Positions 3,508 to 4,651 of a stretch of 6,035 nt of DNA are shown in pieces (position 1 is the first letter of the stretch; every line of letters starts with the position of its first letter). The notes under the pieces were generated by a model. That model was not told the DNA's origin, did no database searches, and saw only the letters and a program-made list of their open reading frames with translations. Made by a program: the position numbers and the translations under genes. This DNA is from a virus (lineage: Duplodnaviria > Heunggongvirae > Uroviricota > Caudoviricetes), in the IMG/VR virus record IMGVR_UViG_2547132269_000007, positions 1-6,035 of that record; one strand, 5' to 3'.

Positions 3508-4074
3508 ATGGCTAAACCAGCGCGAAGACGATGTAACCGTAAAAGAGAAGATTTAACTGTTAAAAGGATATTTGAGTTACTAAGTTTCGATAAATCTATC
3601 GGGGTATTTAGATGGAAAGTTCCCACTCAGGGAAGGATAGCATTAAATAGTGTTGCTGGAACTTTTGATTCCAACGGTTATTCAATGATCATGATAGATG
3701 GGCGTAGATATAAAACTCACGTCTTAGTTTTTTACATAACTCATAATCGTTGGCCTGCTGGTCAAATTGACCACGTTAATGGAATTAGGACCGATAATAG
3801 GCCAGAAAATTTAAGAGAATGCCTGCCAATAGAAAATTCAAGAAATATAAGGATCCGAAAGAATAGCAAATCAGGTTGCAGAGGGGTTACTTGGCACAAA
3901 CGACAGAAAAAATGGAATGTTAGGCTAGGTTTCCATGGCAAGAGTAAACGCTTCGGATGCTTTGATGATCTGGAGTTAGCGGTACTAGTTGCTGAAGAAG
4001 CCCGAGATAAGTATTACGGTGATTTTTCCGGCAACGAAAGGAGCACTTATGCGAATCTATCGAAGGAAATGTAA
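3508..4074 (+). CDS. HNH homing endonuclease with C-terminal AP2 DNA-binding domain (188 aa); its first 9 codons appear to be the original ninG start
   Basis: GGAGG at 3494-3498, ATG at 3508. HNH_3-like region [48 protein letters not shown]; AP2-like region [51 protein letters not shown]-terminus MAKPARRRC matches my recollection of the lambda NinG N-terminus. Body is AT-rich. Confidence 0.85.
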
Positions 4075-4651
4075 ATGTTGCAATGAATGGTTTATACCAA
4101 AATATCAAAATCAATATTGGTGTAATGAGATTTGTGGAACAAAGATAGCACTCGAACGACGAAGCAAAGAACGCGAAAAAGCGGAAAAAGCAGCAGAGAA
4201 GAAACGACGACGAGAGGAGCAGAAACAGAAAGATAAACTGAAGATTCGAAAACTCGCCTTAAAGCCCCGCAGTTACTGGATTAAACAAGCCCAACAAGCC
4301 GTAAACGCCTTCATCAGAGAAAGAGACCGCGACTTACCATGTATCTCGTTCGGAACGCTCACGTCTGCTCAGTGGGATGCCGGACATTACCGGACAACTG
4401 CTGCGGCACCTCAACTCCGATTTGATGAACGCAATATTCACAAGCAATGCGTGGTGTGCAACCAGCACAAAAGCGGAAATCTCGTTCCGTATCGCGTCGA
4501 ACTGATTAGCCGCATCGGGCAGGAAGCAGTAGAGGAAATCGAATCAGACCATAACCGCCATCGCTGGACTGTCGAAGAGTGCAAGGCGATCAAGGCAGAG
4601 TACCAACAGAAACTCAAAGACCTGCGAAACAGCAGAAGTGAGGCCGCATGA
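4049..4651 (+). CDS. ninG: NinG (Rap-like recombination protein), 200 aa, restarting at an internal SD/ATG after the HNH insertion
   Basis: AAAGGAG at 4037-4043, ATG at 4049. Product [58 protein letters not shown]... follows lambda NinG as I recall it from GTKIALERR onward. The first roughly 90 nt are AT-rich and recoded. Overlaps the HNH gene by 26 nt. Confidence 0.9.

Follow-up and report, generated by a model that had tools for sequence, protein, structure and literature searches.

An HNH endonuclease gene that takes over the start of ninG in lambdoid prophages: a candidate mobile cassette

How can an endonuclease gene occupy the very start of a phage gene and leave that gene whole? The question is raised by the nin region of a lambdoid prophage in IMG/VR virus record IMGVR_UViG_2547132269_000007 (positions 1 to 6,035; this whole stretch of 6,035 nucleotides is the window of our analysis), where an open reading frame (ORF) at 3508-4074 starts with the ninG codons MAKPARRRC, continues into HNH/AP2 coding sequence and overlaps the start of ninG itself. 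An initial annotation of this DNA had described a homing endonuclease gene that splits ninG while keeping it expressible. We found that a unit of approximately 3508-4132 is nearly invariant and occurs in many left and right contexts of Escherichia coli and Salmonella lambdoid prophages. Taking the analyses together, we lean towards the view that it encodes a free-standing homing endonuclease spreading by intronless homing, in which a divergent ninG 5' end would provide both self-immunity and ninG rescue.

The limits of the element were fixed by alignment to lambda (J02459). Lambda and the window match at 97.6% identity over 3495-3536, there is no match until 4133, and from there the match continues at 98.0% over 4133-4674, which sets the two junctions at 3536/3537 and 4132/4133 and agrees with the insertion at ninG codon 9/10 that had been proposed. 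The parts of the locus are the following:

3494-3498, plus strand: GGAGG ribosome-binding site, which serves ninG in lambda and the endonuclease ORF here
3495-3536, plus strand: lambda-type ninG leader, with the ribosome-binding site, the ATG (3508-3510) and codons 1 to 9 2/3 (MAKPARRRC plus AA)
3508-4074, plus strand: endonuclease ORF, 188 amino acids
3523-3536, plus strand: left copy of an imperfect 14-nucleotide repeat, CGAAGACGATGTAA, codons RRRCK of lambda-type ninG
3537-4048, plus strand: endonuclease-specific DNA, 38.9% G+C, no lambda counterpart
4037-4043, plus strand: new ribosome-binding site AAAGGAG for ninG, in the 3' tail of the endonuclease gene, 5 nucleotides before the ATG at 4049
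4049-4132, plus strand: divergent replacement ninG 5' end, 28.6% G+C, presumed self-immunity segment
4049-4651, plus strand: ninG (rap), complete, 200 amino acids, Pfam NinG
4061-4074, plus strand: right copy of the repeat, CGAAGGAAATGTAA, codons RRKCK of the divergent ninG, which supplies the endonuclease stop
4133-4651, plus strand: lambda-type ninG body, the right homology arm, 98.0% identity to lambda

The endonuclease ORF now has the lambda-type ninG leader as its 5' end, as the identity of the leader to lambda confirms, and the only in-frame ATG, GTG or TTG before codon 60 of this ORF is codon 1, the ninG ATG; the capture of the ninG ribosome-binding site and start codon, as initially described, is thus borne out. 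The PGAP annotation gives an identical product of 188 amino acids. Relatives with approximately 43% identity align from residue 16 and end approximately 11 residues sooner, which leaves a core of approximately residues 15-176, and one free-standing relative (L064, 161 amino acids) has its own methionine five residues before the conserved N-terminal motif. Since the ORF has no start of its own and its relatives are shorter at both ends, it begins in one ninG 5' end and stops out of frame in the second, inside which its TAA stop (4072-4074) lies. When the ORF was searched for at other loci, it was again found at the ninG start position after ninF: ninF is directly 5' of the endonuclease ORF in E. 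coli PK8241 and in a Salmonella Infantis prophage, in the order ninF-endonuclease-ninG, and the overlap between ninF and the endonuclease ORF (loci L003 and L006) is the same as that between ninF and ninG in lambda. The endonuclease gene has therefore taken the slot of ninG in a translationally coupled chain. No ninG was found in the neighbourhoods of three distant relatives (L007, L064 and L065).

The protein is predicted, with support from family, profile and fold comparisons, to be an endonuclease with HNH_3 and AP2-type domains, belonging to a phage homing-endonuclease family. Its two domains are:

3709-3828, plus strand: HNH_3 catalytic domain, residues 68-107, with the pattern DH...N...N
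3874-4020, plus strand: predicted AP2-like DNA-binding domain, residues 123-171

Pfam HNH_3 (PF13392) was matched with 42.7 bits, against a cut-off of 24.8 (E = 4.3e-11, residues 68-107), and phrog_99, "HNH endonuclease", with 2e-69, which supports the HNH-AP2 identity first given to this ORF, with the AP2 part staying below its Pfam cut-off. Residues H71, D88, H89, N97 and N101 are invariant in family alignment A3. In a tblastn search 3005 phage records gave a match, which spanned 80% or more of the protein in 1546 cases, and all but four of the 3005 had less than 60% identity; the best relatives beyond those four have approximately 43% identity and are found in Jersey-like Salmonella phages, T5-like phages and others, and the phage records listed are annotated as HNH or homing endonucleases. 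Beneath the cluster at 98% identity, the next relatives have at most 47% identity and none was seen in a ninG context, and a search for close relatives in one genome per species gave only a 38% identical match from Planctomycetota. The AlphaFold2 model of the 188-residue protein has a mean predicted local distance difference test score (pLDDT) of 76.8, with values below 50 only at residues 1-13 and 174-188, the two terminal extensions, which are disordered in the model. A search of the Protein Data Bank by sequence gave no match; by fold, the best match is I-HmuI (1u3e; probability 1.00, E = 9e-3, template modelling score 0.35, 16% identity over 99 aligned columns), followed by AP2 domains of plants and Plasmodium with probabilities of 0.72-1.00 and weak E-values, among the AP2 folds 7wq5, 7et5 and 1gcc (probability 1.00, E 0.045-0.09).

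What, then, has become of ninG? The gene restarts from the ATG at 4049, behind the AAAGGAG site and within a 26-nucleotide overlap with the endonuclease ORF, just as the initial annotation had it. The replacement 5' end reads as a complete, homologous and divergent ninG start region: its MRIYRRKCK is the counterpart of the first residues of lambda NinG, and the replacement N-terminus retains the four cysteines, the EWF motif and the WC motif. The segment 4049-4132 has 28.6% G+C, against 50.5% for the lambda counterpart, shares with it 55.6% of nucleotides and 16 of 30 amino acids and is shorter by three codons, and lambda-like identity (98%) comes back abruptly at 4133. The AT-rich composition of the first approximately 90 nucleotides and the abrupt return had been described correctly; their description as recoded does not hold in the sense of synonymous recoding, which we rejected because most changes are non-synonymous, three codons are gone and 14 of 30 residues differ. 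The full NinG domain is present (Pfam PF05766, 7.1e-84, profile positions 5-192 of 193) and the protein is 91% identical overall to lambda NinG, with 200 amino acids against 204. NinG is, as read from its gene, encoded whole, with an upstream remnant of only nine codons, so the gene is expressible and is not split as had been stated. A group I intron was rejected, as Rfam gave no intron match at E <=1 anywhere in the window, and an intein was rejected, as the Pfam scan gave no intein domain; no splicing is required, because NinG has its own start.

The divergent N-terminus was searched for in several collections. In the phage collection, tblastn found at most 61% identity outside four carrier records; partial E. 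coli entries were all that a word-indexed protein search gave; among 1.84 billion protein representatives the identity was at most 64%; and a degenerate KCCNEWF pattern gave 12 extra matches in IMG/VR, all of them out-of-frame chance matches in AT-rich contigs.

Two changes were observed elsewhere in ninG. At nucleotide 4350 (codon 4349-4351) the window has TTC (Phe), where lambda and the other carriers (55 of 56) have TGC (Cys); this change, private to the window, falls in the conserved CISCG motif and probably damages a zinc/HNH-type cysteine of NinG in this prophage. A 9-nucleotide insertion, GAAAAGGCA, at window position 4183, in a Lys/Glu-rich repeat of ninG, adds three residues and is found in 7 of the 56 carriers, AU6Stx1 among them; the 80 lambda-like empty alleles that were sampled all lack it.

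The divergent 5' end and the endonuclease gene are inseparable in their distribution. Both were found, with at least 99% identity and always on the chromosome, in 538 of 5426 complete E. coli genomes, the same 538 for each; in IMG/VR, the divergent 5' end accompanies the endonuclease gene in all 54 evaluable contigs, and in the phage collection it is present only in the four records that carry the endonuclease. In none of these three collections was it ever found without the endonuclease gene. The segment had been taken initially for a co-conversion tract left by homing, a view that had to be abandoned: with the same right-hand edge in 56 copies, and never occurring without the endonuclease gene, it is a fixed part of the cassette. 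Besides E. coli chromosomes, the cassette is present in four records of Stx1 (Shiga toxin 1) phages, in Salmonella and in 56 IMG/VR contigs; carriers include O157, O111, O145 and other Shiga-toxin lineages, and the cassette is 1-2 kb upstream of Q and stx. Lambda-type ninG was found at 2440 places in 1169 E. coli genomes, and approximately 570 of these places (approximately 23%) are occupied, the remaining approximately 77% being without the endonuclease. In the same 5426 genomes the best match to window positions 3400-4700 has approximately 98% identity, and the closest sequence found to the window is an IMG/VR contig (L008), with 99.2% identity over 493-4272.

Two partial matches that were inspected (L003 and L202, from two E. 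coli strains) are insertions of IS3-family insertion sequences into the cassette. The insertion in L003 (3508-4817) lies at window position 4041-4043, in the new ninG ribosome-binding site; that in L202 (approximately 1546-2869) is an IS2 at window position approximately 4096, inside the divergent ninG 5' segment, and for this reason L202 was rejected as a recombinant with a partial divergent segment. Both insertions disconnect or disrupt ninG.

The variation among carriers was studied in an alignment of 56 copies, many of which are loci from related enterohaemorrhagic E. coli (EHEC) isolates and not independent, and was compared with 80 endonuclease-free alleles, a set chosen for its similarity to lambda and biased in that respect. 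Nucleotide diversity (pi) among the carriers is distributed as follows:

3495-3536, ninG leader: 0.014
3537-4048, endonuclease-specific DNA: 0.0043
4049-4132, divergent ninG 5' end: 0.0020
4133-4651, ninG body: 0.0355

The diversity of the cassette is approximately 8-18 times below that of the adjoining ninG body, the step falls at 4135, and variable sites number 25 of 596 in the cassette against 110 of 519 in the body (Fisher p = 1e-18). In the endonuclease-free alleles the homologous 5' region has an ordinary diversity of approximately 0.015, and the low value of the cassette is therefore not intrinsic to that part of ninG. The junctions and the right-hand edge are identical in all 56 aligned copies. 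The ninG bodies attached to the cassette, which are up to approximately 50 nucleotides apart between carriers, are interspersed with endonuclease-free alleles: they differ by 0-5 nucleotides from such alleles and by a median of 12-21 nucleotides from other carriers, and the carrier body of L016 is identical to an empty allele, that of L061 differing by one nucleotide. A single cassette haplotype is joined to up to eight ninG body haplotypes. Within one cassette haplotype all four allele combinations occur at positions 4141 and 4165, where the same alleles also segregate in empty genes, which points to crossovers within tens of bases of the cassette edge. On the left, at least three contexts were seen (the 590-amino-acid ORF of the window, a lambda-type ninF and another ninF type), and on the right several, with ninH, a Ser/Thr phosphatase gene and different Q genes. 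The endonuclease ORF is intact in 55 of the 56 copies and its polymorphisms comprise 10 synonymous and 12 non-synonymous changes, the common ones being mostly synonymous. These population data fit a mobile cassette. The sole broken ORF (L063) has a deletion of one nucleotide at window position 3728 and is truncated at codon 76.

We propose that the cassette would spread in the following way. Upon induction or infection, the nin transcript would express the endonuclease, and the enzyme would nick or cut the 5' region, approximately codons 10-31, of an empty lambda-type ninG on a lambdoid genome that replicates alongside. Repair by recombination would then copy the cassette from the carrier genome, that is, by intronless homing, with ninF and the ninG leader as the left homology arm and the ninG body from 4133 as the right one. 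The divergent 5' segment would remove the recognition site from carriers and so make them immune, and it would also restore the expression of ninG with its Cys-rich N-terminus kept; because of this double role in immunity and restoration, the segment would have to travel with the endonuclease gene. We infer cleavage, the position of the target and drive in this scheme by analogy with known systems; what the sequences show is the architecture, the family, the linkage and the recombination pattern. The target so predicted is a defined stretch of approximately 90 bp of lambda DNA.

Several results weigh against active homing. The Pfam AP2 match, with 22.8 bits, is under its cut-off of 33.3 (E = 1.1e-4); the E-values of the fold search are weak, the best being 9e-3; the endonuclease-free alleles used for comparison are a biased set; and none of the databases searched yielded a donor ninG allele carrying the divergent 5' end. 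Moreover, occupied and empty lambda-type ninG coexist in one chromosome, for example in strain JB2, from which it follows that conversion would be neither efficient nor constitutive in lysogens; such coexistence in lysogens would be expected if the nin genes are silent until induction, as is established for lambda. Finally, a single ancient insertion, followed by ordinary homologous recombination and clonal expansion of EHEC, could give the same pattern. This last explanation, in which the gene was inserted once, is inactive or never homed into ninG, and owes its distribution to homologous recombination within the conserved nin region and to the clonal spread of its hosts, is a live alternative that we regard as unlikely. 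Lambdoid prophages are highly mosaic, a ninG body conserved at 97-98% offers ready crossover sites, and both the coexistence of occupied and empty genes and the relatedness of many of the EHEC isolates sampled are what such passive movement would give. It accords poorly, however, with an ORF that is intact in nearly all copies and shows signs of purifying selection, with recombination breakpoints within 8-30 nucleotides of the cassette edge, and with a diversity 8-18 times lower than in the adjoining 519 nucleotides despite at least three left contexts and presence in both E. coli and Salmonella, which suggests recent and rapid spread; an inert enzyme would also leave unexplained why the divergent 5' end is never separated from the endonuclease gene.

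The initial annotation, taken literally, implied an insertion at codon 9/10 with a duplication of ATGTAA and approximately 90 nucleotides recoded in place or left as a co-conversion tract of variable length. In silico removal of 3537-4074 does restore a single open ninG frame, as it had stated, and each edge carries an ATGTAA (at 3531-3536 and at 4069-4074); this hexamer is nevertheless at chance frequency in the window (4 found, 4.8 expected) and its two copies are the homologous Cys-Lys codons of the two ninG 5' ends, for which reasons we rejected it as a target-site duplication. The match of 11 of 14 nucleotides between the copies at 3523-3536 and 4061-4074, together with the correspondence of MRIYRRKCK, indicates that a second ninG start region is present in full within the element, and the mostly non-synonymous differences and the missing codons do not fit recoding in place. 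Co-conversion tracts are expected to vary in length, whereas the edge of the segment is the same in 56 copies, and the predicted precise-deletion junction has no match among the 2.9 million viral contigs of IMG/VR. This model is already largely contradicted, and we hold it to be very improbable. We give least credence to a domesticated nuclease, kept for the benefit of the phage, for instance by excluding competing lambdoid phages or by aiding NinG/Orf recombination, and not for its own propagation. A conserved and intact ORF in the recombination/nin operon, translationally linked to ninF and ninG, would suit such a role, and free-standing endonucleases are known to cause marker exclusion as a by-product (PMC2988022). 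Yet the approximately 77% of lambda-type ninG places without the gene show that it is dispensable, the great majority of its family are free-standing homing endonucleases from lytic phages, and exclusion would use the same cleavage as homing, which makes this explanation not truly separate from homing itself. Spread by intronless homing is thus the reading that we favour. Its fullest form, which we advance tentatively and rate a little below an even chance, is that of an active "start-swap" homing cassette, with neither intron nor intein, that takes the initiation region of ninG, brings a substitute 5' end that resists cleavage and supplies a new ribosome-binding site and ATG, and is now spreading among the lambdoid and Stx prophages that pathogenic E. 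coli and Salmonella carry.

Taken as a whole, the window represents a lambdoid prophage's nin region, in the order ninE-like sequence, 590-amino-acid ORF, endonuclease ORF, ninG, Q and transfer RNA (tRNA) genes, and also includes:

approximately 470-690: ninE-like sequence, nin region of lambdoid prophage
1150-2922, minus strand: AT-rich ORF of 590 amino acids, function not assigned
4638-5183: antiterminator Q gene

With ninE on one side and the endonuclease gene on the other, the 590-amino-acid ORF (35% G+C) occupies the position of ninF in other prophages; it is without a Pfam domain, has a full-length match to PHROG 9230 (unknown function) and is also found in the Stx1 phage AU6Stx1. From its position it resembles a moron that has entered the nin region. 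At 3248-3312 there is a microsatellite of hexanucleotide units, (TATTTC) x 10.8, whose length varies among related loci, with indels of 6-18 nucleotides in pairwise alignments. Just 5' of the endonuclease gene, in the context of the 590-amino-acid ORF, 3363-3390 (plus strand) is a G-rich, terminator-like hairpin with a T run after it; terminator-like sites in that region number six, against 1.4 expected, and four of them are variants of this one hairpin. On the 3' side of Q (window 5275-5505 and 5847-6025), Rfam identifies three tRNA genes, and ARAGORN only two, Asn-GTT and Gly-TCC, missing the one at 5355-5427; a match to the small RNA STnc100 in the region 3' of Q is below threshold (36.6 bits against a gathering score of 47).

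The cassette is widespread in prophages of pathogenic E. coli, being carried by approximately 10% of complete E. coli genomes. If the endonuclease is active, break-induced co-conversion could shape mosaicism near Q and stx, the region that controls toxin expression, and, if the start-swap proposal is true, co-induced prophages could undergo gene conversion in the neighbouring ninH-Q-stx regulatory region, driven by the cassette. The pair is routinely annotated as "HNH endonuclease" and "recombination protein NinG". In the literature searched we found no paper that links ninG to the insertion of an HNH or homing endonuclease or that describes this architecture, and the genome announcement of SH2026Stx1 makes no mention of the insertion.

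The closest analogies are found among the free-standing endonucleases that T-even phages carry, for which intronless homing, co-conversion of flanks and marker exclusion have been described (PMC2988022, PMC2790892). The endonuclease gene of the window resembles the seg and mob genes in its intergenic position, its presence/absence polymorphism, its translational coupling and its proposed spread by break repair with co-conversion. In contrast, the seg and mob enzymes often cut hundreds of bases away and have their own start codons (PMC2988022, PMC2790892), whereas here the putative ninG target would be directly beside the gene, and the ORF continues in frame from the first nine ninG codons. The protein itself is predicted to resemble I-HmuI (1u3e) in having a small DNA-binding domain behind an N-terminal HNH nuclease, I-HmuI being intron-encoded and having a helix-turn-helix C-terminal domain, and it resembles, with 40-43% identity, the annotated HNH_3-AP2 homing endonucleases of T5-like and Jersey-like lytic phages of Salmonella and E. 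coli.

The T4 mobA/gene 60 system (Bonocora et al., 2011, as summarised in bioRxiv 10.1101/2022.08.31.505936) is one in which an endonuclease travels with an adjacent sequence change that protects its carrier. On that account, both cases combine a free-standing HNH gene in a coding region with an adjacent alteration, as one mobile cassette. The T4 topoisomerase gene is truly split, into genes 39 and 60, and protection is given by a 50-nucleotide insert that ribosomes bypass, whereas ninG stays whole, protection would come from the divergent 5' end, the endonuclease uses the start codon of the target gene, and the host is a temperate lambdoid phage and not a T-even phage. In the Aeromonas phage Aeh1, the insertion of mobE in nrdA is tolerated through new junction sequences (PMC3045599); there too an HNH free-standing endonuclease gene is inside a coding gene, with neither intron nor intein, and the host gene is kept functional by new sequences. 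Nevertheless, Aeh1 nrdA gives two polypeptides that reassemble via new tails, while ninG gives one polypeptide, with a new start and nine codons left upstream. Besides splitting (Aeh1 nrdA) and translational bypass (T4 gene 60), ninG would thus represent a third route into a coding gene, in which the 5' end is duplicated, one copy driving the endonuclease and the other, divergent copy restoring ninG and probably giving immunity.

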